In this document: piece by piece, positions 1,754 through 14,076 of the stretch
How positions within the stretch are numbered: the first letter of the stretch is position 1
Layout of the letters: each line of letters begins with the position of its first letter
Source of the DNA: Marinicellaceae bacterium
GTDB lineage: Bacteria > Pseudomonadota > Gammaproteobacteria > Xanthomonadales > Marinicellaceae
Length of the DNA: 14,243 nt
NCBI GenBank assembly: GCA_050303435.1
Contig: JBNLBT010000085.1
Span: 1-14,243, forward strand
Reading direction: 5' to 3'
Made by a program: the position numbers and the translations under genes
The notes under the pieces: model-generated
What the model saw: the letters and a program-made list of their open reading frames with translations, nothing else
Told to the model about the DNA's origin: nothing
Databases searched by the model: none

Positions 1754-2632
1754 ATGAACATTTTGAACAGACAACGGGTGCGGGTGATGTGGCTGGCGGT
1801 GCTTTTGGCCGTGGGTGCTGTGCAGGCGCGCGATTTTGAAGTGCAGGTGCACGGCGAAGGTCAGCCGATGCTGCTGATTCCAGGATTGAGCAACCACGCC
1901 GCGGTGTGGGACGAAACCGTGGCTCGCTATCAAGACCGTTACCGCACGCACGCGGTGACCTTGCCGGGATTTGCCGGTGTGGCGCCGATGTCATACGAAG
2001 GCGATTACCTGGACGCGGTGACCGCGCAGTTGCTGGCCTACATCGATGCGCAGAAACTGCACAAGCCGGTCATCGTCGGGCATTCGCTGGGTGGCTACGT
2101 GGCCATGAAACTGGCCATTGCCCGGCCCAAAGCCTTCGACCGGCTGGTGATTGTCGACTCGCTGCCGTTCATGGCCGCCATGCAGGTGCCGACGGCCACC
2201 GAAGAAAGCATCAAACCGATGGCCGAAATGATGCGCAAAAACATGAACTCTAATGATGAGACCGCGCGTGCGGCAAGCCTGGACATGCTGTTGCCGAGCA
2301 TGATCACCGATCCTGAGCGGATCGCGCTGGCCAAACGCTGGGGCATGGATTCCGATCCGCACACGGTGGCGCAGGCCATGTATGAGTTGATGACGCGCGA
2401 TCTGCGCGACGAATTGCAGCAGGTCAAAATCCCGGTGCTGGTCATGGGCGCGTGGATCGCCTATCAGGGCTTTGGCATGACCCGCCAGCGGCTGCTGGAC
2501 AGCTACGGCGCGCAATACGAGGCCTTGGATGACCTGACACTGAAGGCCACCGACAGCGGGCGTCACTTCATCATGTGGGACGACCCTGAATTTTTCTTCA
2601 CCGAAATCGACGCCTTCCTCGCGCGGCCGTGA
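1754..2632 (+). CDS. Secreted or periplasmic alpha/beta-fold hydrolase (esterase/lipase-like), with signal peptide
   Basis: The N-terminus RVRVMWLAVLLAVGAVQA|RD looks like a Sec signal peptide. GHSLGG nucleophile elbow is present. GAGGTG RBS lies 7 nt upstream of ATG 1754; the track's TTG 1748 is a less likely start. The stop overlaps the next gene's GTG start (GTGA). Confidence 0.7.
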   Translation: MNILNRQRVRVMWLAVLLAVGAVQARDFEVQVHGEGQPMLLIPGLSNHAAVWDETVARYQDRYRTHAVTLPGFAGVAPMSYEGDYLDAVTAQLLAYIDAQKLHKPVIVGHSLGGYVAMKLAIARPKAFDRLVIVDSLPFMAAMQVPTATEESIKPMAEMMRKNMNSNDETARAASLDMLLPSMITDPERIALAKRWGMDSDPHTVAQAMYELMTRDLRDELQQVKIPVLVMGAWIAYQGFGMTRQRLLDSYGAQYEALDDLTLKATDSGRHFIMWDDPEFFFTEIDAFLARP

Positions 2633-3699
2633 ATTCCACCGCGCGCAACCACCGCAATTTCTGGCTGCTGAACGCCGCCGGGTGGGCCGTGTACCTGAGC
2701 ATCAGCGGGGTGTTTTTCGCCGCCATGAGCGGACAGATGAACCGCAACACCGCGCTGATCCAGGCACTGGCCTTTGCCTTGCTGGTGCCGGTCACCGGCG
2801 CCCTTCGGGCCCTGATCAAGGCGCGCGGCTGGGTCAACACCCTGGGTCGCCCCGGCGTCATTCTGGGTTTGTTGGGTTTGACGCTGCTGCTCTCGCTGGC
2901 GGTGCAATTCAGCGTGTCGCTGTTCATGATGTATGGCCTGGGGATGATGAACTGGTCGACGTATTCGGTGCCGGTGCTGGCGATGACCGTGGCGCAGACC
3001 TGGTTCATGCTGGTGGCCTGGCTGCTGTTGTATTTTGCCATCATCCACCGGCGCAACGCGCACCGCCAGGCGCTGGAGAAATGGCAGGCCGAAAGCGCTT
3101 TAAAAGCCGCCGAGTTGCACGCCCTGAAAGCGCAGCTGGACCCGCATTTCATCTTCAACTGCCTGAACAATCTGCGCGCGCTGGTGACCGAAGACGTGGA
3201 CCGCACGCGGCAGATGATCACGCATCTGTCGGAAATTCTCAAGTACACCCTGCACCACAACCGTCGGGAAAAAGTCACCCTGGGTGAGGAAATGGATCAC
3301 GTGGCCAACTACCTGGCCCTGCAGTCGCTGCACCTGGAGGCGCGCTTGCAGACTGCTGTGCAGGTGCCGCAGGCTTTGCGCAGCGCGCAGGTGCCGCCGC
3401 TGAGCGTGCAGTTGCTGGTGGAAAACGCCATCAAGCACGGCATCATGCATCGACCCGGCGGCGGTGAGGTGTCGATTGCGGCCAGCGCCGCACACGGTCA
3501 ACTGAGCGTGCAGGTGCGCAACCCCGGGGATTTGCAAAAGCACACCGCCGGCCATGGCATCGGTCTGAACAACCTGCGGGAACGGCTGGCGCTGCTGTGG
3601 CCGCACAACGCCGCATTGCATTTGCGTGAAGAGCGCGGCGCGGTGGTGGCAGATTTGCGGTTGCCACTGGAGACTGAAGGAGAACCCCGGCATGAATGA
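2629..3699 (+). CDS. Membrane sensor histidine kinase of the LytS/YehU (His_kinase PF06580-type) family
   Basis: Four to five N-terminal TM helices. The phospho-acceptor region ELHALKAQLDPHFIFNCLNNLRALV is the His_kinase (LytS-type) motif. An HATPase region (LLVENAIKHG..GHGIGLNNLRERL) is present. The GTG start overlaps the hydrolase stop. Confidence 0.75.
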   Translation: MNSTARNHRNFWLLNAAGWAVYLSISGVFFAAMSGQMNRNTALIQALAFALLVPVTGALRALIKARGWVNTLGRPGVILGLLGLTLLLSLAVQFSVSLFMMYGLGMMNWSTYSVPVLAMTVAQTWFMLVAWLLLYFAIIHRRNAHRQALEKWQAESALKAAELHALKAQLDPHFIFNCLNNLRALVTEDVDRTRQMITHLSEILKYTLHHNRREKVTLGEEMDHVANYLALQSLHLEARLQTAVQVPQALRSAQVPPLSVQLLVENAIKHGIMHRPGGGEVSIAASAAHGQLSVQVRNPGDLQKHTAGHGIGLNNLRERLALLWPHNAALHLREERGAVVADLRLPLETEGEPRHE

Positions 3700-4411
3700 A
3701 CACCCGATCACCGCCCTGGTGGTGGACGACGCGCGGCTGGCGCGCAAAGAACTTTTGCATCTGCTCAAGGCGCAGCCGGAAATCCATGCGCTGGGTGAGG
3801 CCGAATCGGCCGCGCAGGCGCGCGAATTGATCGCCGAACACGCGCCCGATGTGTTGTTTCTCGACATTCAAATGCCGGGAGAGGATGGCTTTGAACTGCT
3901 TGAGTCGCTGGATCACGCGCCGCAGGTGATTTTCACCACCGCCTACGATCAATACGCCATTCGCGCGTTTGAGCACAACGCCCTGGATTACCTGCAGAAA
4001 CCGGTCGATCCGGCGGCGCTGGCGCGGGCCATTAAACGCTTGGCCACGCGCGTGAAACCCGCAGAAGCATCGCGCAACGCGGCCCACCCGCGCCGCGTGT
4101 TTGTCAAGGACGGTGAGGCCTGCTGGTTTGTGCCGGTGGAACGCATCCGCCTGCTGGAAGTGGACGGGCATTACACCACGCTGCATTTCGATGACGCCGC
4201 GCCGATGATCGCCAAGACACTGAATCAACTGGAAAGCCGCCTGGACCCGGCGCTGTTTTTCCGCGCCAACCGCAATCAAATGATCAACCTTCAGCACATC
4301 GAAGACGTGCAGCCATGGGTGCAGGGCGTGCGCGTGCGGCTGAGCGACGGTCGCTGGGTGGAACTGTCACGGCGCCAGAGCCAGGCTTTCCGGGCGCGCA
4401 TGAGCCTGTGA
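3692..4411 (+). CDS. LytTR-family (LytR/AlgR-type) response regulator
   Basis: Receiver domain ALVVDDARLARKEL...VLFLDIQMPGEDGFELL, plus a C-terminal LytTR DNA-binding domain (FVKDGEACWFVPVERIRLLEVDGHYTTLHF...FFRANRNQMINLQHI). The ATG overlaps the kinase stop (ATGA). GAAGGAG RBS is upstream. Confidence 0.8.
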   Translation: MNEHPITALVVDDARLARKELLHLLKAQPEIHALGEAESAAQARELIAEHAPDVLFLDIQMPGEDGFELLESLDHAPQVIFTTAYDQYAIRAFEHNALDYLQKPVDPAALARAIKRLATRVKPAEASRNAAHPRRVFVKDGEACWFVPVERIRLLEVDGHYTTLHFDDAAPMIAKTLNQLESRLDPALFFRANRNQMINLQHIEDVQPWVQGVRVRLSDGRWVELSRRQSQAFRARMSL

Positions 4412-4419
4412 ACGGGCAT

Positions 4420-4472
4420 TTGTTAAAAAAACGTTAAAATTTGCTTGACATGCTTCGAGCGGCGGTTAAAAT
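4420..4472 (+). promoter_or_regulatory. Near-consensus sigma70 promoter (TTGACA-16 nt-TAAAAT) with an A/T-rich UP region and GTTAAAA(T) direct repeats
   Basis: TTGACA at 4445-4450, TAAAAT at 4467-4472. Repeats GTTAAAA at 4421-4427 and 4432-4438, 11 bp apart, and again at 4464-4470 overlapping the -10. Confidence 0.6.
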
Positions 4473-4478
4473 GCGTCG

Positions 4479-4699
4479 CTTATTTGAAATCACACCGCGC
4501 CACAGGCGGCGGTCAACATCAGGAACAACAACGTGAATAAAGGCAGATACAACAATCAGATGATACAGCGGTCACCGCACGCGGTGCTGCCGTTTCATTG
4601 CATGATTTAATGCCTTTCTTCAGCGAAAGGCATGCATGGCCTTTCGCTTCTCTCTGCTTCGCAGGAAACCCCGTCAGGCCACGCCGACGGGGTTTTTTT
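4479..4699 (+). ncRNA. Candidate ~220-nt small RNA or leader transcript, running from the strong promoter to a strong Rho-independent terminator; contains a 25-codon small ORF
   Basis: Bounded by the promoter and the terminator. Internal 9-bp hairpin GCGAAAGGC-ATGCATG-GCCTTTCGC at ~4623-4647. Small ORF GTG 4533..TAA 4610 (MNKGRYNNQMIQRSPHAVLPFHCMI) with AGGAA 8 nt upstream. Confidence 0.35.
4669..4699 (+). terminator. Rho-independent terminator
   Basis: CCCCGTC-aGGCcacGCC-GACGGGG stem followed by TTTTTTTATTTT. Confidence 0.8.
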
Positions 4700-4804
4700 A
4701 TTTTCCTAAACCCCGTTTTAAAGAATTGCTGATCCTCATGGCGTCGTCTCTGTACGGCGACCCGGTGCCCCCGACGCTGTCGGTGTGCATGCCGGATCAG
4801 ACAA

Positions 4805-4878
4805 TGCTGGATAGCTCAGTTGGTTGGAGCAACCCATTCAGATTGGGTCGGTCGAGGGTTCGATTCCCTCTCCAGCTC
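4805..4878 (+). tRNA. tRNA-like gene with a class-I cloverleaf and predicted anticodon CAG at 4839-4841; its isotype is anomalous because a CAG anticodon normally implies a class-II Leu tRNA
   Basis: Manual fold: acceptor TGCTGGA/TCCAGCT (6 bp plus a U1:U72 mismatch); U8 A9; D-arm GCTC-AGTTGGTTG-GAGC (Met-elongator-like); anticodon stem ACCCA/TGGGT with loop TTCAGAT; 5-nt variable loop CGGTC; T-arm GAGGG-TTCGATT-CCCTC; discriminator C; no encoded CCA. Confidence 0.5.
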
Positions 4879-4944
4879 TGAAGCTCAATGGTGGAGCAGG
4901 TGAATTTACTCATCGGGTTGCAGGTTCGATTCCTGTCAGAGCAC
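4874..4944 (+). pseudogene. Second, degenerate tRNA-like cloverleaf that overlaps the 3' end of the first by 5 nt (probable tRNA pseudogene or duplication relic)
   Basis: Acceptor AGCTCTG/CAGAGCA (6 bp plus an A1:A72 mismatch); D-arm GCTC-AATGGTG-GAGC; anticodon stem GGTGA/TCATC with a non-canonical 6-nt loop ATTTAC; T-arm GCAGG-TTCGATT-CCTGT. It repeats the TTCGATTCC T-loop of the first element. Confidence 0.3.
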
Positions 4945-5188
4945 TTCGATCTGTCCTTTTACGACAGATGGCGAAGCCATCAGGAACGCAAGTTCCCATC
5001 CAGTAAAAGACGTGCAAGGGTCTTAAAACATTGCAACCGACCTCGGTGCAGCGGCGCAGGCAGGCGCCATGAATGTCACCCGGACGTGTCGGCACAACGA
5101 CCGCAACGCTTCAATCCATGCAATGGGCATGGTTTCTGTGTGTGGCTCGGCCAATGACGGCTGGCGCGGGTTTGCCCGCGCGCCGTGG

Positions 5189-5255
5189 GGTGTGCAGCGC
5201 TGCGAGACGCAGGGCGTGTGATTCGACAGGGCGGTCGAATCGCAGCGGGCACACC
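5189..5255. repeat. Long imperfect inverted repeat (composite hairpin) in the intergenic region, preceded by the GC hairpin GGCGCGGG-tttg-CCCGCGC (5163-5184)
   Basis: Inner perfect stem GATTCGAC-agggcg-GTCGAATC (5220-5241). Outer arms GGTGTGCAGCGCTGC and GCAGCGGGCACACC are near-complementary. Confidence 0.5.
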
Positions 5256-5521
5256 ACACCCGGCTTGATTCCGAGACTCCCGCGTTGTGGTCGTGAGGCG
5301 GTTTTTTTAATTTGAGATGCAGGCGATCAAAGGGATCGCATGCATCGGGCGTTGGCGGGATGGCCCGCGAACGCTGCAGGCAGGTGGCGTGGAGGTAATC
5401 AATGAGGCGGGCGCGTGCGTTGCATGCGCCCATTTTAGAACGTATTTAAACAATGCAAATTCAATGAGAATAACTTAGCAAAGGCGCCGATGCCAGGCAT
5501 GGGTGCCACAGGAGAAGACCG

Positions 5522-7362: not shown

Positions 7363-7404
7363 AAAAAAACGGCGGCGCGTTTCAGGGCACCTAAACGCAC
7401 CGCC
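7363..7404 (-). terminator. Strong Rho-independent terminator downstream of the beta-helix gene, read on the - strand
   Basis: On the - strand: GGCGGTGCGTTT-aggtgccctg-AAACGCGCCGCC followed by GTTTTTTTG. Confidence 0.75.
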
Positions 7405-7412
7405 CAAAGGCA

Positions 7413-8921
7413 TCAATCGTCGAAATCGTGGGCGTATATGACGTCCGGAATGGACTGTTCAAAGGCGCCGATGTCGCAGCGCGGCAGGCCGTCGGCGTTG
7501 CCGTCCTGAAAGCGGTCTTCGCCGCGTTGGTCGGTGTTCAGGATCAAGCCGGTTTCGTCGCTGCAGCCGGTCGGATCGCCGCCGTCGATCAGCGCGCTGC
7601 CGGCGTTGGGCGCGCGCGTCGGTGTGGGGCCGCCGTTGTCGGTCAGGCCATCCAGCTGTGGGTCAATGGCGCCGCCGGCGCCGCTGTCACCGGACAAGTC
7701 GTTGCCGGCCAGCGTGAGCCCACAGCCGGCCACATCGCCGATGAAATTGTAATCGTCTGAGTTGCCATTGCCGCTGCAATCCGGCCCGGCGCCGCCGTTG
7801 AGTGTTTGATTGTCTGCCAGCACGGTGTTTCTGATCAGCACACCGCTGTTGAAAAACAACCCGCCGCCGCTGCCGCCGACGTCTTCGGCGTTGGCGATGT
7901 TGCGGGTGATGGTGCTGTTGAGGATTGCGGTGAATTCGCCACTGAACGAGCGCAGGTACAGGCCGCCGCCTTCGTTGCCGGCGCGGTTGCCGTCGATGGT
8001 TGAATTGATCACCACGTGGGTGCCGTTGGACGAATAGATGGCGCCGCCGCGCTGCTCTGACGTGTTGTCGGCCAGGGTGGTGTTTTCAATGCGCATGACG
8101 CCGCCTTCCTGGATGTTGAAAATGGCGCCGCCGCGCAGGGCCGATTGATTCAATTCAAACAGCGAGTCGGTGACGCTCAGATTGATCACCGAGCCGATGG
8201 CCTTGCGCAGCGAGATGGCGCCGCCGTTGCCACTGCTTTTGTTGTTGATGAAGAGGCTGCGCAGGATGGTGGCATCGATCTGCCCGGGGCCTTCGCTGCT
8301 GGCGTCCAGATCAATGGCACCGCCGGTGCCATTGGTGACCGCGTTGTTGCTGAATACGCAGTCTTCAATCAGCAGCGTGCGCCCACTCGCGTCGCCTTTG
8401 AACACCACCGCGCCGCCGCCATTGGAGGCGCTGTGAGAGTCGATGAGGCAATTGCGCAGGGTCAGATTGGCCGGCTCATCCATGCGCACTGCGGCGCCGT
8501 AGGCACCGCCGTCCAGCAGCTGCATGTTTTCGACGCGCAGTTCGGCGTCGCTGACGAGAATCGGACTGGTGTCATTGCCTTGCAGGCCGATCTGAGCACC
8601 GACGGGGGCAAGAATTTCCAGCGCTTCGGTGACCGCCGGCAAGCCGTTGACGCTGACGTCAATGACGGCGTTCAGTGGCAGGCCGTCGAACTCAATGACG
8701 TCGCTGCCGACCGCGCCGGCGCCGCATTCTCCGGCACTGCCGCCCGAGGCCGAGTTGTTGTTGGCGGCCAGAATGGCCTCGCGCAGCGTGCATTCGCCGT
8801 CGTTGTCAATCAGTGTGCCGGTGCTGTTGACTGTGATGGTGGCGGCGCGGGCCGTGGCCTGGCACAGACCCAGCGCGAGCAGCGCGATCAAGAGGGCATG
8901 GGTTGCGGTTGTTCTGTTCAT
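7413..8921 (-). CDS. Secreted right-handed parallel beta-helix repeat protein with an N-terminal CSLREA-like motif
   Basis: Signal peptide MNRTTATHALLIALLALGLCQATARA. The motif ECTLREAILAANNN follows the signal peptide. More than ten repeats of the GGA(I/V)/GGGL type (GGGAVVF, GGAIDL, GGAISL, GGAIFN, GGAIYS, GGGLYL, GGGLFF) with N/S-rich turns. C-terminal motif ...PRCDIGAFE. GGAGAGG RBS lies 5 nt upstream of ATG 8921; the upstream in-frame extension in the track is rejected. Confidence 0.7.
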   Translation of the reverse strand: MNRTTATHALLIALLALGLCQATARAATITVNSTGTLIDNDGECTLREAILAANNNSASGGSAGECGAGAVGSDVIEFDGLPLNAVIDVSVNGLPAVTEALEILAPVGAQIGLQGNDTSPILVSDAELRVENMQLLDGGAYGAAVRMDEPANLTLRNCLIDSHSASNGGGAVVFKGDASGRTLLIEDCVFSNNAVTNGTGGAIDLDASSEGPGQIDATILRSLFINNKSSGNGGAISLRKAIGSVINLSVTDSLFELNQSALRGGAIFNIQEGGVMRIENTTLADNTSEQRGGAIYSSNGTHVVINSTIDGNRAGNEGGGLYLRSFSGEFTAILNSTITRNIANAEDVGGSGGGLFFNSGVLIRNTVLADNQTLNGGAGPDCSGNGNSDDYNFIGDVAGCGLTLAGNDLSGDSGAGGAIDPQLDGLTDNGGPTPTRAPNAGSALIDGGDPTGCSDETGLILNTDQRGEDRFQDGNADGLPRCDIGAFEQSIPDVIYAHDFDD

Positions 8922-9030
8922 GGGACCTCTCCCTGTGTTGATACAACCCCTTAAACAAGAAATCGAGTGAATGACGACAGGTCGGGTGAATTTTTTATCT
9001 TCAGACAGGCCGGGCAAGGGCCGTTGCGGT

Positions 9031-11523
9031 TTATTCAGAATCGTTGACTGCCGTCTCGATCGGGGCCATGCGGTGTTGCAGCAGCAGGTCATTGAGCTCC
9101 CTGGAGTTGACCCCGTGCGCGCGCAGTTTGTCCAGCCACGGGTGGGCCTGGTCGATGTGGCCGGTGTGCAGCAGGGCGGTGGCCATGGTCAGTACGTAGT
9201 AAATGCTGTCGGAGGATTTTTCCACCACCGGACGGATCGCTTCAAGCGCCAGCAGCCGCTTGCTGCGCGCGGCGTCGTGCAGGCCCAGTCCGGCGTCGAT
9301 GTTGGCGGCTTGCATCAGGTCCATGCTGTAGTCATTGGCCGCCGAGTCGTTGCCCGGATCCAGGGCCACCAGATCGGCGGATATGGCCAGGCTCTTGCCG
9401 CTGTATTCACGCGCCAGGGGCACGTCGTCGGCGGCCAGCAGGACTTCGGTCATGAGATTGTATGAATAGGCCAGTTCGCGTTTGAAATTGCGGTTTTCCG
9501 GTGACCGCAGGCCCAGGCGTTGCCCCATTTCGATGGCTTTGTCCAGCGCCTCGCGGGCGCCGGCATGATCGTCCTGTTCGAGCAGAAAAAAAGCCATGTT
9601 GTTGTGCAGCACGCGCAGGTTGTTGTGCAAATCAATGCGTGTGTTCTGCAAGTCCACCGCCTGCTCGCCGATGCGCAGCGCGGTGCGCAGGGCATCAAGG
9701 CCCAGCGACAACGTGCCGTAATCCAGCTGATACCAGGCCATCGCCTGGTGCGATTGACTCAGGTATTTGTGCCAGTTGTGCACGTCGTCCGGTTTGCGCT
9801 GCAGGTTGGCTTGACTCAATTCAATCGATTCTTCAATGAAGCGCAGCGCCTGTTCGCCGGAAGCGTTTTCCAGGTGGTGCCAGGCCAGCAGGTTCAGTGT
9901 TTCCCACAAATTAAAGGCGTTGTCCGCCGGGGCCATGGCGCGCGCGTTGGCCAGCGCCGTGTGCAATTCCGCTTCGGCTTCGTCCAGGCGATTCTGCTGC
10001 GTTAATATGGTGCTCAACAAGGCGCCGATTTTGGCCAGTTTGCCCAGACGCAGGGCGCGGTATTCGGGGGCGTCGCGCAGATGATCCAGGCTGGCGCGCC
10101 CGGCCAGCAGCGCCTGTTGCGCGTCCTGGTGCAGTTTCAGATCCATCAGGACGCGGGCGATCTGCACGTAGTTCTGTGCCTTGTGCCAGTGAAATTGCGG
10201 GTCGTCGACGCGGCCTTCGAATTGGCGCAGATGCGCCAGAGACTGTTCGGTGATGTCCAGCAGCAGATCGGTCTTGCCCATGTTGTCGAGTTTTTCATAC
10301 AGGTTTTGCAGCATGAAATTGAGCAGCCCGTCGGAGGCATTGCGGGCCTGCTCGGCGCGGATTTTCTGCTGGCGGATGTCGTGGGTGTATTTCAACGAGA
10401 AGCCGATGGCGGTCGCACACAACAGCAGGGCCACGGCGGTCAGGCCTTTGTGTCGGCGAATGCTCTTGCCCAGCACGTGACCGATGCGGTTGCTCTTCTC
10501 CGCGATCGGCAGGCCATGCATCAGGCTGTACAGGTCGTTTTTCAGGGCCGTGATGCTGGCGTAGCGCCGCTCCACGCGCCGCTGCAGGCACAATTCAATC
10601 ACCCGGTGCACATCGGCGGGCAGCGCGCGGGCAAATTCCTCATCGGCGTGAAACGGGTGGCGCGCCGGCGATTCAGCGCACACATCGGTGAGGGCCTGTT
10701 GCTGCAGGCCTTTGAGCAGCAGGTACAGCATCGCGCCGCAGGCGTAGACGTCCACGCGCGCGTCGATGGCCTGCCCCTGCAGTTGTTCCGGGGCCATGAA
10801 ACCCGGGGTGCCGAACGCGGCATTCACCGGGTGTTCCTGCCAGCGCTGTGGATTGACCGAGATGCCAAAATCGACCAGCACCGGCGTGACGATGCCGTGG
10901 CGGTGTTCCACCAGGATGTTGCCGGGTTTGATGTCCATGTGCACGATGTGGTGCTCGTGGATGTACTCCAGCGCTTCACAGATTTTCAACATCAGCGCCA
11001 GCACTTCGTTGCGTGTGCACGGCTGTGTTTTGACGTGGGCATCCAGTGTCGGGCCGTCGATGTATTCCAGGGCCAGCCACGGCCGCCCGTCCTCGCTGTG
11101 GCCGGCGTCCAGGATGGGCACAATGTACGGGTGGCGCAGGTCCGCCAGAATCTGCATTTCCTGCAGGAACTGCTGGCGGGAAAAATGCTGCCCGCTGTGC
11201 GCGTGCAGAAATTTGATCACCACGGTTTTCTGATACAGACCGTCGGCGCGTTTGGCCAGATAAATCTCGCTTTGACCGCCTTCGGCGATTTTTTCCAGCA
11301 AGCGGTAGCGTTGCAAATCGGCGGCCTGAATGGTTGGGGGTTGGTCAAAAACGTTGTGCAACAATTGGTCCAGTTGCTGGCCGATTTGCGCTTGAATCAG
11401 GGGCCGGTCAGCGGCCATCAGGCCGTCGGCCTTGAGCGCGCGCATCAGTTCTTCGCCGTGCAACTGGGGATTGGATTCGATGAAGGCCTGAATTTTATCC
11501 CAGTCTTCGAACGGCTCACTCAT
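9031..11523 (-). CDS. Membrane Hanks-type serine/threonine protein kinase with a single TM helix and a ~430-aa TPR-like C-terminal (periplasmic) sensor domain
   Basis: Kinase motifs VVIKFL (the ATP lysine), HHIVHMDIKPGNILV (catalytic loop), VDFGIS (DFG) and GTPGFMAPEQ (APE). TM helix LTAVALLLCATAIGFSL. Repetitive helical C-terminus. The start ATG overlaps the sigma stop (ATGA). Confidence 0.8.
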   Translation of the reverse strand: MSEPFEDWDKIQAFIESNPQLHGEELMRALKADGLMAADRPLIQAQIGQQLDQLLHNVFDQPPTIQAADLQRYRLLEKIAEGGQSEIYLAKRADGLYQKTVVIKFLHAHSGQHFSRQQFLQEMQILADLRHPYIVPILDAGHSEDGRPWLALEYIDGPTLDAHVKTQPCTRNEVLALMLKICEALEYIHEHHIVHMDIKPGNILVEHRHGIVTPVLVDFGISVNPQRWQEHPVNAAFGTPGFMAPEQLQGQAIDARVDVYACGAMLYLLLKGLQQQALTDVCAESPARHPFHADEEFARALPADVHRVIELCLQRRVERRYASITALKNDLYSLMHGLPIAEKSNRIGHVLGKSIRRHKGLTAVALLLCATAIGFSLKYTHDIRQQKIRAEQARNASDGLLNFMLQNLYEKLDNMGKTDLLLDITEQSLAHLRQFEGRVDDPQFHWHKAQNYVQIARVLMDLKLHQDAQQALLAGRASLDHLRDAPEYRALRLGKLAKIGALLSTILTQQNRLDEAEAELHTALANARAMAPADNAFNLWETLNLLAWHHLENASGEQALRFIEESIELSQANLQRKPDDVHNWHKYLSQSHQAMAWYQLDYGTLSLGLDALRTALRIGEQAVDLQNTRIDLHNNLRVLHNNMAFFLLEQDDHAGAREALDKAIEMGQRLGLRSPENRNFKRELAYSYNLMTEVLLAADDVPLAREYSGKSLAISADLVALDPGNDSAANDYSMDLMQAANIDAGLGLHDAARSKRLLALEAIRPVVEKSSDSIYYVLTMATALLHTGHIDQAHPWLDKLRAHGVNSRELNDLLLQHRMAPIETAVNDSE

Positions 11524-12065
11524 GTCTGCATGCGGCTGGACAGCATCATCAGCGCGCTGTTCCAGTCGCGGTCGATGGTGCGCACATTGACCGCCAGAAG
11601 TTCGGCTATTTCACGGTTGCTCATGCCGCCGAAAAAGCGGTAGACAAACACCTCTTCCAGCCGCGCCGAGTAGCGACTGAGTCGCTGCAGATTGTCTTCC
11701 AGGTCGATCAGCCAGTCGACCTGATTGTGCAGTCCCGGCGGTTCGGCCGCGTTGTCGGTCACGGTTTGTTCGTTCAGCACCGGTTTCAGGCGCCTGGATT
11801 CGTTGATCAGAATGTGCCGCATCGCCAGCGCCGAAACGGCGAAAAAGTGGTTGCGGTTCTGGTAGGTCTTGTCCTGCTGTTTCATTTTCAGCCAGGCTTC
11901 ATTGACCAGCATGGTGGTGTTGATCTGGTGGTTGTGAATTTTCAGCTTTTGCGATTTGGCAATTTTTTTCAGGTGGGCATACACGCGCTCAAAGTCGTAG
12001 TTTTCGTCCAGTTGAAAACCGACGGTGCGTTTGTTGATCAATCGCGTGATGGGAATGGATTCCAT
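11520..12065 (-). CDS. ECF-type sigma-70 family sigma factor lacking the region-2 DAED acidic motif (NTTM instead); the type associated with a Ser/Thr kinase
   Basis: Region 2 (FERVYAHLKKIAKSQ...INTTMLVNEAWLKM) and a region-4 HTH (GGMSNREIAELLAVNVRTIDRDWNSA) are present. Thr50/Thr51 occupy the positions of the usual D/E residues. It is translationally coupled to the downstream kinase. Confidence 0.7.
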   Translation of the reverse strand: MESIPITRLINKRTVGFQLDENYDFERVYAHLKKIAKSQKLKIHNHQINTTMLVNEAWLKMKQQDKTYQNRNHFFAVSALAMRHILINESRRLKPVLNEQTVTDNAAEPPGLHNQVDWLIDLEDNLQRLSRYSARLEEVFVYRFFGGMSNREIAELLAVNVRTIDRDWNSALMMLSSRMQT

Positions 12066-12099
12066 GAAATGCTGCCCGCTGCTTGTGCCTCTGTTTTGA

Positions 12100-12148
12100 A
12101 CTATAGCACAAATCCTGCGCCGAAAAACAGATTGACATGAGGGTCAAT
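12100..12148 (-). promoter_or_regulatory. Putative promoter of the sigma gene (extended -10 TGcTATAGT on the - strand) with an upstream palindrome ATTGAC-N6-GTCAAT
   Basis: On the - strand, ...TGTGCTATAGTtcaaaacagaggcac...ATG. The palindrome sits at + strand 12131-12148. No convincing -35 was found. Confidence 0.35.
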
Positions 12149-12222
12149 GGGTGGGCGCGAAAATTTGTGAGGCACGCCTCAATTTCCGCAGGCAATGCAC
12201 AACAAGCGATCTCGGCCTGCGG

Positions 12223-14076
12223 TCAATACAGCCGTTCTCCGGCCGCTTTGATATCCTGGCCGACGTCACCCAGTGAATCGATGTCGACCAGTATGAAGTG
12301 CCCGTCAAAATCAATGCCGTGATCTTCGGGTACCGCCTGATCGATGTCGCTGTCAGCTTGCATCAAACACAAGAGAATCACAAACGGCACGTCCGCCGGC
12401 TGTTTCAATTGTTTGCTGGCCAGCCAAACCTTGCGGATGGATTGCAATTTTTGCAGAGAGGCGCGCAATCGCGCTTTGGCCGCGTCACTGATCTCGGCCG
12501 GCAAAAAAACCGAATTTTCATTCAGATCGTGCATGTCTCGATACAAAGCCTGATGCCGGTCGTGCTGTGCTTCCAGCTTGCGCAAGACGGTTTCAGCTTT
12601 TGCCGTTTCGCCGCGCAGCAGGTGGTGGCGGTACAAGTCTTCACCGGCCTGTTGCAGGGGGTGCGGACTGTGCAGCACACGCATCAACAGCGCCTCGCCG
12701 CGTTCCGGTGCATCCTGCAGCAAACTGGACCCCAGGTAATACATGGCAAAGGTGTTGTCTGGCTCAATGGCCAGCATGGCTTCAAGGGTGGGCCGTGCGT
12801 GCTGAGCACCGTGCAGATTGATTTCAATTTCAGCCCGTTCTCCCAGGCTGTCCATATCGTCTGCCGGATTGGCGTTGAGTTCCGCCAGACGGGCCCGGGC
12901 GCTTTGCGCGTATTGGTGCACTTCCTGCCAGCCTTTTTGGTTTTCTTCAGCCCATTGCCGGTCAAAGTAGTCCAGACAATCGTCCAGTGAGTCCGACAGC
13001 CAGACGAGAGCCGCACTGGGTTCATTCAATGGGCGCCAGACCGGCTCAACCCGCAAGGCCTGAAGCCGGTCCTTCAGTGCAGGGTGCGTGTCGCTGTAGC
13101 CGGTGGCCAAATTCAAGGCTTGTTGCAATGCCAGCTCGGCCTGAGCTGTGTCCAGCGAATGTGAGGCCAGGTGCTGCACCAGTTCATGGCCCACACGGCG
13201 ATTGATTTCAGCGTGCGTCTGCGCGGTCTTTTTCAAGGGTTGCCAGAACGTCTCATCGACAAAATGGCTGTGCAGTTCCGTCACAATCAATGCGACTCCC
13301 AGGTCTTCGGCGGACGTCAGCTGGGCAGCCACTGCGTCGGCTTCGAATTCATTGGCGCGCGCGAGCACAAATGAATACGCATTGAAATGCGGTGCGTAGC
13401 GATTAAAAAACGCACCCAGTAACCAGCGGGCAGACCCGTTGCTTTGATTGACCGCGTGCATGATGCGCATCCAGGTCATTCGCAGTCGGTAGACCCATGC
13501 ATTGAACTTGGCGTGGTCACCGCGCAAGTGCCCCATTTCATGCGCCACCACGGCCAATGCCTGTTGCGGATTCAGGCTGGCCAGCAACTGAACCCCCAGA
13601 ATAAGGGTGTTTCTGTGCCAGCCGAAAATGCCCAGGCGCGGCAGCTGCTGGATGGCCGCATTCATCTCGAAATTCAGCTTGACCTGGTGGATCGGCGGGG
13701 TGTGCAGGCGCCAGGCCATTTCATCGAGGTGCTCAAACAGACGGGGTGCCTGTTGACGTTGGATGATCCGGCCGGGCAGGCCCTCGAAGCGGATCATCAG
13801 GGAGCGTCCGATGACCACAATCAGGGCAACGATGAGCAGGATGAATTTACTTTTAATCAACAAAAGCAAAAATCCGTGACTGAAGATGACCAGCAATGCG
13901 GTGCCTGCGAACAGGCCCAAGGCCAGTGAAAAAAGCACAAACAGATAAGCGTAACCCAGCCAGGCAAGCCATTTCAGGCGGCGCTTGTAGGCCGCCGGGT
14001 TGCGTTCATAAACAGCGCGTGCACGCGCGGCCGTGCGCTCAAATTCTTCGCGCAGTTGGGTGCTGGATTTTGTCAT
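12223..14076 (-). CDS. Membrane-anchored M48-family zinc metallopeptidase (HEXXH) with a TPR-like C-terminal domain
   Basis: N-terminal hydrophobic helices (WLAWLGYAYLFVLFSLALGLFAGTALLVIF and FLLLLIKSKFILLIVALIVVIG). Zinc-binding motif VVAHEMGHLRGDH plus a downstream NEFEAD (a candidate third zinc ligand). Long helical C-terminus with TPR-like repeats. Confidence 0.7.
   Translation of the reverse strand: MTKSSTQLREEFERTAARARAVYERNPAAYKRRLKWLAWLGYAYLFVLFSLALGLFAGTALLVIFSHGFLLLLIKSKFILLIVALIVVIGRSLMIRFEGLPGRIIQRQQAPRLFEHLDEMAWRLHTPPIHQVKLNFEMNAAIQQLPRLGIFGWHRNTLILGVQLLASLNPQQALAVVAHEMGHLRGDHAKFNAWVYRLRMTWMRIMHAVNQSNGSARWLLGAFFNRYAPHFNAYSFVLARANEFEADAVAAQLTSAEDLGVALIVTELHSHFVDETFWQPLKKTAQTHAEINRRVGHELVQHLASHSLDTAQAELALQQALNLATGYSDTHPALKDRLQALRVEPVWRPLNEPSAALVWLSDSLDDCLDYFDRQWAEENQKGWQEVHQYAQSARARLAELNANPADDMDSLGERAEIEINLHGAQHARPTLEAMLAIEPDNTFAMYYLGSSLLQDAPERGEALLMRVLHSPHPLQQAGEDLYRHHLLRGETAKAETVLRKLEAQHDRHQALYRDMHDLNENSVFLPAEISDAAKARLRASLQKLQSIRKVWLASKQLKQPADVPFVILLCLMQADSDIDQAVPEDHGIDFDGHFILVDIDSLGDVGQDIKAAGERLY

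Follow-up and report, generated by a model that had tools for sequence, protein, structure and literature searches.

The window analyzed here, positions 1 to 14,243 of contig JBNLBT010000085.1 of a Marinicellaceae bacterium, carries on its minus strand the gene of an extracytoplasmic function (ECF) sigma factor joined to that of a Hanks-type receptor Ser/Thr kinase. We consider it probable that this pair is the core of a two-gene regulatory module of the ECF43 type, that a gene for a secreted CSLREA beta-helix protein behind it is most likely its local output, and that the gene of an M48 metalloprotease with tetratricopeptide repeats (TPR) in front of it is an unrelated neighbor. An earlier interpretation made from the nucleotide sequence alone, referred to below as the sequence-only reading, had placed these four genes on the minus strand, where the open reading frame (ORF) list also locates them, and had taken them for an uncharacterized four-gene system. 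The sequence features it described are real, but the interpretation fails. Neighborhood analysis, which it had itself proposed, showed that the four genes are not co-conserved, with only sigma and kinase genes standing regularly as a pair, and the combination of a sigma factor lacking an anti-sigma factor with TPR proteins, which it did not recognize, corresponds to the characterized ECF43 sigma/Hanks-kinase arrangement (PMC8999054, PMC13147305). The locus is a further case of this known family, situated beside an unrelated M48-TPR gene. All positions refer to the window; L-numbers denote the loci and P-numbers the proteins that were compared.

The sigma factor carries an ECF43-type threonine motif

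The sigma factor matched PF07638 (Sigma70_ECF) with 80.5 bits (cutoff, 21.1), TIGR02999 with 135 bits (cutoff, 126.15), and PF08281 with 29.1 bits, and it has the architecture of the ECF type, with sigma2 and sigma4 only. We take the PF07638 and TIGR02999 models to correspond to the ECF43 group; ECF243 was rejected as a group label, as it denotes the iron-starvation group. Residues 49 to 52 of sigma2.2 read NTTM in place of the acidic DAED of other sigma factors, and Thr51 is invariant in 9/9 aligned kinase-linked sigma factors (that of the window and the eight others recovered). Two more threonines, T101 and T103, lie in the linker between sigma2 and sigma4. The closest sigma factor to that of the window was found at L003 (63% identity).

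Replacement of the DAED of sigma2.2 by uncharged residues that include a conserved threonine, with the consensus QTTA, is a criterion of the ECF43 group (PMC13147305, PMC8999054), within which QTTA, STTA, and QATE are variants of a phospho-threonine motif (PMC13147305, PMC8999054, PMC8103513). Phosphorylation of this threonine by the neighboring Hanks-type kinase provides the negative charge for RNA polymerase binding (PMC13147305, PMC8999054, PMC8103513), and by analogy Thr51 is the predicted phospho-acceptor in the window. Absence of an anti-sigma factor is a hallmark of the group (PMC7826278), and profile searches detected no anti-sigma domain in the proteins flanking the sigma factor. That none is encoded would be explained by a sigma factor switched on through phosphorylation, with NTTM and its Thr51 standing where DAED would otherwise be.

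The kinase is a relative of PknS from Xanthomonas citri

The sigma stop codon and the kinase start codon overlap by 4 nt (ATGA), as calculated from their coordinates. The kinase gave a Pkinase match with an E value of 4e-41, and its catalytic motifs, VVIK, HMDIKPGN, DFG, and APE, appear intact on reading of the protein sequence. An N-terminal extension of about 70 aa is followed by the kinase domain, a transmembrane helix (a single segment by hydrophobicity, residues 359 to 379), and a TPR-like C-terminal region of about 450 aa, in which TPR_12 matched residues 639 to 714 with 32.6 bits (cutoff, 30.1). The orientation predicted from this layout would make the TPR-like region extracytoplasmic. 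Among solved structures, the best match was 9eed_A (E value, 5.2e-36, against 3e-32 for PknB), which is residues 1 to 364 of X. citri PknS with the substitution M164A, as identified by a length and residue numbering that agree with PMC13147305.

The three closest kinase homologues (P0002 to P0004, encoded at L003, L004, and L006) were 42, 36, and 34% identical to the kinase of the window; one of them is from Marinihelvus fidelis (Wenzhouxiangellaceae). An overlapping sigma-kinase pair is kept at all three loci. The sensor domain of the window type (kinase residues 346 to 830) was found only at L003, L004, L005, and L006, L005 being a short Logan contig with the same kinase as L004. When contigs were scanned with the complete kinase sequence as sole query, the one match was a distant Clostridiales kinase, which contributed no neighborhood data.

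Further observations concern the kinases and sigma/kinase loci. The kinase of the window (at residue ~196) and its three closest homologues have HMD for HRD in the catalytic loop, which classes them as non-RD kinases, whereas HRD is present in 101 of 117 homologues with a recognizable catalytic-loop motif and also in PknS. L012 contains two separate PF07638 sigma/TPR-kinase modules within 6 kb (9443-12422 and 14502-17392), with a PIN/RHH toxin-antitoxin pair and a GNAT gene between them. At L003, the intergenic region between divergent GntR and sigma genes (~9290-9460) holds a long AT-rich near-palindrome, TGTATATACTGTATATATAGATATACACAGTATATACA, which is probably a GntR operator.

Comparison with characterized ECF43 pairs and a proposed mechanism

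EcfK and PknS of X. citri constitute an ECF43 sigma factor and a Hanks-type receptor kinase (PMC13147305, PMC8999054). The pair of the window shares with them a threonine at position 51 of sigma2.2 (NTTM in the window, QATE in EcfK), linker threonines (T101 and T103), and the lack of an anti-sigma factor. Its kinase is similar to PknS in size (830 aa, compared with 833 aa) and in layout, with a periplasmic TPR region, and the PknS kinase domain is its best solved match. The two systems differ in that EcfK keeps an acidic residue after the threonine (QATE) that is absent from NTTM and in that the target in X. citri is a type VI secretion system (T6SS) cluster, whereas the candidate target in the window is one secreted beta-helix gene.

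According to the accounts of Iyer et al. 2020 in PMC8999054 and PMC8103513, EcfP of Vibrio parahaemolyticus also has a non-acidic sigma2.2, STTA compared with NTTM, in which the second threonine is the phospho-acceptor, and the sigma factor is inactive until phosphorylated. The gene of its kinase, PknT, is placed close to the sigma gene, where the two genes of the window are adjacent; the Vibrio regulon confers polymyxin resistance. In the literature searched, functional detail was found for only these two ECF43 pairs, those of Vibrio (polymyxin resistance) and Xanthomonas (T6SS-based defense against amoebae), while a third, from Hyphomonas neptunium, is cited merely as working alike.

From gene content, motifs, family membership, neighborhood statistics, and a conserved upstream block, we infer the following scheme, in which phosphorylation, promoter function, regulon membership, and the sensing of a signal are all putative. 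By analogy with the characterized pairs, the sigma factor would be made in an inactive state, with the uncharged NTTM at the place where an acidic DAED patch binds the beta' clamp of RNA polymerase. The co-translated membrane kinase would sense an extracytoplasmic signal through its large TPR-like domain and phosphorylate the sigma factor, predictably at Thr51 and possibly also at Thr/Ser residues of the linker. Phosphorylation would restore negative charge, allowing the sigma factor to bind core polymerase. The beta-helix gene could be read by read-through from the sigma-kinase operon, which is possible because no terminator lies in the 109-nt gap, and probably also from a sigma-dependent promoter of its own at 8952-8979, the unit being closed by a terminator.

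The neighboring gene encodes a secreted protein with a predicted beta-helix fold

The sequence-only reading had described the product of the next gene as a secreted CSLREA beta-helix protein, and this description holds. The protein begins with a signal peptide of the Sec type (...ATARA|AT). It matched CSLREA_Nterm (TIGR04214) marginally, with 25.2 bits against a cutoff of 25, and choice-of-anchor-Q (NF041518) with 51.2 bits against 25. Its CTLREA motif, of the CSLREA type, is invariant in the alignment of close homologues (A1), and it contains PMP-like repeats. In an AF2 model, the core was all beta, with most of residues ~30 to 400 at pLDDT values of 70 to 94. Essentially all of the best 50 Foldseek matches listed were right-handed beta-helix proteins (enzymes, tailspikes, and RbtA), at TM-scores of only about 0.3; the modeled fold of the CSLREA protein is accordingly that of a right-handed parallel beta-helix.

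The protein resembles Rhombotarget A (RbtA, TIGR04212; PDB 9cdu/9cdv) and other CSLREA/choice-of-anchor-Q proteins in its CTLREA motif, in a beta-helix with PMP-like GGAI repeats, and in being secreted, and it showed a weak sequence match to the Rhombotarget A structure 9cdu. It was rejected as an RbtA orthologue, as it scored 27.6 bits against a cutoff of 295 and has no GlyGly-CTERM. Reading of its sequence revealed no C-terminal anchor, the protein ending in ...VIYAHDFDD without a hydrophobic segment. The extreme C terminus (window positions 7413-7450) carries a motif, (D/E)x(I)(F/Y)xxxF(D/E/Q), that is conserved in all seven close homologues of alignment A1; it directly follows the choice-of-anchor-Q domain, and no known sorting signal comes after it. 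This motif may be an unrecognized secretion or anchoring tag.

The beta-helix gene recurs beside sigma/kinase pairs

The three closest beta-helix homologues with usable context (P0242, P0243, and P0244; 47, 37, and 36% identity) are each encoded immediately beside a PF07638 sigma and kinase pair. At these loci (L010, L012, and L094), the module has the order kinase-sigma and is convergent to the beta-helix operon. Counting all close homologue loci, the module adjoins the beta-helix gene in three of five. For a distant survey, 80 loci from metagenomes that encode members of the broad CSLREA family (median, 5.5 kb; 390 kb of flanking sequence in total) were searched with the kinase domain of the window and a profile of the nine aligned sigma factors. 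Adjacency was found at three of these 80 loci. At L062, a sigma-kinase-kinase set is directly adjacent to, and divergent from, the beta-helix gene; at L081, the sigma gene is divergent, and a kinase gene is followed by the beta-helix gene; at L077, a kinase gene precedes the beta-helix gene at the contig end. Overall, the association of beta-helix gene and module is recurrent, takes several gene orders, and is not universal.

Other kinds of secreted proteins were found at loci of the closest kinases. L004 (Marinihelvus fidelis) has two Peptidase_S74/YadA-head proteins beside its sigma/kinase pair, and L006 has an FG-GAP/Big_9/cadherin protein, so that two of the three closest kinase loci carry a secreted repeat protein next to the pair and one does not.

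A candidate promoter precedes the beta-helix gene

The upstream regions of the beta-helix gene and of its closest homologue, at L010, share an exact 11-mer, TTTCTTGTTTA, within a block of 19/28 identity. In shuffle tests of the two regions, an 11-mer was reached in 3 of 2000 shuffles and the block identity in 3 of 500. The block holds a promoter-like site, TGTCGT-N17-GTTTA, whose end lies 30 nt ahead of the start codon in the window; for the L010 version, TGTCCG-N17-GTTTA, this distance is 31 nt. A search of the 8922-9030 gap for an ECF-type promoter had been recommended in the sequence-only reading; it yielded this candidate, conserved with L010, although a position weight matrix (PWM) did not recover it robustly. 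To this extent the sequence suggests a sigma-dependent promoter.

A bipartite motif of the same kind was observed elsewhere. TGTCAG-N17-C[GA]TTA occurs in identical form at L004 (8066-8093 and 12475-12502) and L006 (4531-4558), 42 to 57 nt upstream of secreted-protein genes that flank the sigma/kinase pair; it precedes both Marinihelvus Peptidase_S74/YadA-head genes and the FG-GAP/cadherin gene of L006, a metagenome relative. Because a leave-one-out PWM did not single out the sites, the bipartite motif is kept as a candidate only. The loose pattern TGTC-N18-20-[CGT][GAT]TTA had no match in L062, L077, or L081, and elsewhere the loose TGTC pattern occurs at chance frequency, including an instance at 4934-4961 inside a tRNA-like fragment.

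The sigma gene had been described as palindrome regulated. The sole palindrome near its start (12095-12112, 7/9 pairs) is at chance level, since palindromes of this quality number 34 in the window (2.4 per kb), and it overlaps a possible extended -10 element, TGcTATAGT (12108-12100), which a consensus scan that needs a -35 element had missed. Such an element would fit constitutive synthesis of a sigma factor whose activation is posttranslational. No convincing autoregulatory site was found upstream of the sigma gene; a TGTCAA-N17-GATTT sequence at 12137-12110 has no -10 element. The sigma genes of the window and of L006 look sigma70 driven.

Is the beta-helix gene an output of the module?

That the beta-helix gene is under control of the sigma factor, as the sequence-only reading had allowed, is favored by adjacency in near relatives and by the conserved promoter-like block, which support it in part. 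Several observations weigh against this explanation. L012 and L094 are syntenic relatives that count as one instance, and L010 has the same gene order, so that their arrangement may have a single origin. At two other loci of close beta-helix homologues, L013 and L095, no sigma/kinase pair is present within 8 kb, and a CSLREA gene was found at none of the three closest kinase loci (L003, L004, and L006). As the nearest kinase compared is 42% identical, the gene-order comparison is limited to distant relatives. The promoter-like site of the window has just TGTC and TTA in common with the motif of L004 and L006; when a full-width PWM from five candidate sites was applied in leave-one-out fashion, neither the window site nor the L010 site came first, the former ranking fifth in the scan of the window. 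A published ECF43 promoter consensus was not found in the literature searched, and the ECF43 assignment draws on a mapping of the PF07638 and TIGR02999 models to the group together with motif and synteny criteria.

On another view, the beta-helix gene would be a mere neighbor, with the regulon located elsewhere and the adjacency in relatives due to shared ancestry or to chance in kinase-rich genomes. Such a view is in keeping with the low frequency in the broad family (3/80), with the missing CSLREA genes at the closest kinase loci, with the weak PWM score of the promoter, and with the common lineage of L012 and L094. We nevertheless regard it as unlikely. Adjacency occurs in at least four gene orders, with sigma factors only 27 to 39% identical to that of the window, which inheritance as a single block does not predict. 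These orders are sigma-kinase-beta-helix, kinase-sigma convergent to the beta-helix gene, sigma-kinase-kinase divergent from it, and a sigma gene divergent with kinase-beta-helix. Moreover, the pair is the immediate neighbor in every case, and the upstream block is shared with L010 beyond chance (3/2000) at the same distance from the ATG.

Alternatively, the beta-helix protein could be a sensor accessory, that is, a secreted or periplasmic partner bound by the TPR domain of the kinase, with constitutive expression alongside the module. Proteins are the usual ligands of TPR domains, the gene is co-directional with the kinase gene with no terminator between them, so that co-transcription is possible, and at L081 and L077 a beta-helix gene also directly follows a kinase gene. 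This proposal seems improbable to us, as the loci with the window-type sensor domain that were readable (L003, L004, and L006) have no CSLREA gene, and at L010, L012, and L094 the module and the beta-helix operon converge, so that they are not co-transcribed. In the kinases adjoining the closest beta-helix homologues, the C-terminal domain is an unrelated one; given this lack of covariation between sensor domain and beta-helix protein, the latter is unlikely to be the ligand of the kinase.

With the beta-helix gene as the more probable local output of an ECF43-type module, the locus adds no new mechanism, but it suggests a third type of output and, for one subgroup of ECF43, a candidate promoter motif. 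The CSLREA/choice-of-anchor-Q family to which the proposed output belongs has no assigned function, and the literature searched contained no description of CSLREA-type proteins as ECF43-module output. Tentatively, secreted CSLREA beta-helix proteins, along with Peptidase_S74 fiber and FG-GAP/cadherin-like proteins in sister lineages, might be a recurrent output of ECF43 modules in marine and soil bacteria, reached in the clade of the window through a promoter of the TGTCAG-N17-CGTTA type; we hold this to be possible without favoring it. If it is true, such modules would amount to portable cassettes that respond to an extracellular cue by placing a beta-helix protein on the cell surface or outside the cell.

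The M48-TPR protease is a neighbor of the module

The gene in front of the pair does encode a membrane protease of the HEXXH type with a TPR-like C-terminal part, as had been described. PF01435 covers residues 153 to 342; H179, E180, and H183 of its HEMGH motif are invariant in 28 homologues, and a downstream Glu is also conserved. A family profile matched TPR proteins at residues ~385 to 525 (E value, 8e-17), and the AF2 model (pLDDT, 90) shows a small alpha/beta domain at the C-terminal end. The N terminus consists of 36 residues with 10 Lys/Arg, two long hydrophobic helices (~37 to 93), and a basic stretch. By the positive-inside rule, this two-helix hairpin suggests an N-in/C-in topology with the catalytic and TPR domains in the cytoplasm, and an envelope location of the catalytic domain was not confirmed.

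Escherichia coli BepA (YfgC; PDB 6ait) likewise joins an M48 HExxH peptidase to C-terminal TPR and was the best Foldseek match of the AF2 model, at a TM-score of only 0.16 to 0.23. BepA, however, is soluble, resides in the periplasm, and has a signal peptide, whereas the protein of the window has a basic N terminus, a two-helix membrane hairpin, and an extra C-terminal alpha/beta domain and is predicted to face the cytoplasm.

Neighborhood data separated this gene from the module. The family is large and of constant length (~620 aa) and extends over many phyla, with members in Marinicella, Methylomonas, Thiothrix, Nitrospira, Armatimonadetes, cyanobacteria, and others. No sigma or kinase gene lay near the M48 gene at the three closest homologue loci with context (L007 to L009), and PF01435 was absent from all six further sigma/kinase loci that had Pfam annotation; among the loci, phmmer detected the protease only in the window, L001, and L007 to L009. 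It also has a sigma70-like promoter of its own at 14166-14138. We judge it to be an independently transcribed, widely conserved neighbor and not a component of the module, so its membership in a four-gene set is not upheld, and it should not carry an annotation as a sigma regulator.

That the four genes form one envelope-signaling system, with the beta-helix protein as effector and the protease intervening in the ECF pathway, for instance by processing the kinase or some regulator, is very improbable: the genes are adjacent and co-directional, protease and kinase both have TPR-like regions, and the order M48-sigma-kinase recurs on contig L001 (probably from the same organism, its sigma factor and protease being identical to those of the window), but the distribution, neighborhoods, separate promoter, and predicted cytoplasmic domains of the protease, as well as the 157-nt gap with a hairpin that separates it from the sigma gene, speak against it.

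In an observation on the M48 loci themselves, an SSF/ActP-type transporter gene and a DUF4212 gene consistently lie behind the ~617-aa M48-TPR gene at L007 to L009 and converge on it, and a BNR/Sortilin-like protein of ~1087 aa is encoded upstream of the M48-TPR gene at two of the three loci.

Locus layout and unit boundaries

The features of the unit are collected in Table 1. The beta-helix ORF was listed as 7413-9092; its true start is the ATG at 8921, because the database entry P0241 (502 aa) begins with the signal peptide MNRTT..., and its six close homologues likewise begin at the signal peptide. A gap of 109 nt (8922-9030) thus separates it from the kinase gene, close to the ~110 nt reported before, and the ribosome-binding site noted there, GGGAGAGG, lies 5 nt upstream of the ATG. 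Scanning and folding of this gap revealed neither a terminator nor a stable structure. The strong terminator described at the end of the unit was borne out: two 12-nt arms (7371-7382 and 7393-7404) with 92% complementarity precede seven T residues, and it folds with -25.3 kcal/mol (z = -3.8 versus shuffles). Between the M48 and sigma genes, a hairpin directly 3' of the M48 stop codon lies in an 87-nt stretch that folds at -27 kcal/mol; it was rejected as a canonical terminator, as it lacks a U-run. Downstream of the unit, the next gene is of the YdeI/OmdA type (6726-~7310) and has its own promoter-like site.

Table 1. Features of the sigma/kinase locus and its surroundings in the window
Feature	Position	Strand	Basis
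M48-TPR metalloprotease, 617 aa	12223-14076	-	ORF list, PF01435; judged outside the module
ECF43-type ECF sigma factor, 181 aa	11520-12065	-	ORF list, PF07638, TIGR02999
Hanks-type receptor Ser/Thr kinase-TPR, 830 aa	9031-11523	-	Pkinase, TPR_12, one transmembrane helix
Secreted CSLREA/choice-of-anchor-Q beta-helix protein, 502 aa	7413-8921	-	NF041518, TIGR04214, AF2
Intrinsic terminator, 3' end of unit	7363-7404	-	Hairpin arms and U7, folding energy
Candidate ECF-type promoter of the beta-helix gene, TGTCGT-N17-GTTTA	8952-8979	-	Block common with L010
Possible extended -10 (TGcTATAGT), sigma-kinase operon promoter of the housekeeping type	12100-12108	-	By eye

Other features of the window

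Two further regions of the window were noted. At 2629-4411, the plus strand carries what looks like a two-component pair with overlapping genes, a LytTR response regulator preceded by a LytS-type histidine kinase (2629-3699). The ORF list has the regulator beginning at 3626, but the real start is probably near 3692. This pair is unrelated to the sigma/kinase locus. A tRNA gene lies at 4805-4878 on the plus strand (Rfam, 58 bits), which ARAGORN called tRNA-Leu(CAG), yet it is 74 nt long and has no long variable arm. The region around it (4411-5520) contains no convincing ORF. Directly after the tRNA, at ~4885-4950, lies a tRNA-like T-arm/acceptor fragment, ggttgcaggttcgattcctgtcagagcac, which may be an integration scar.

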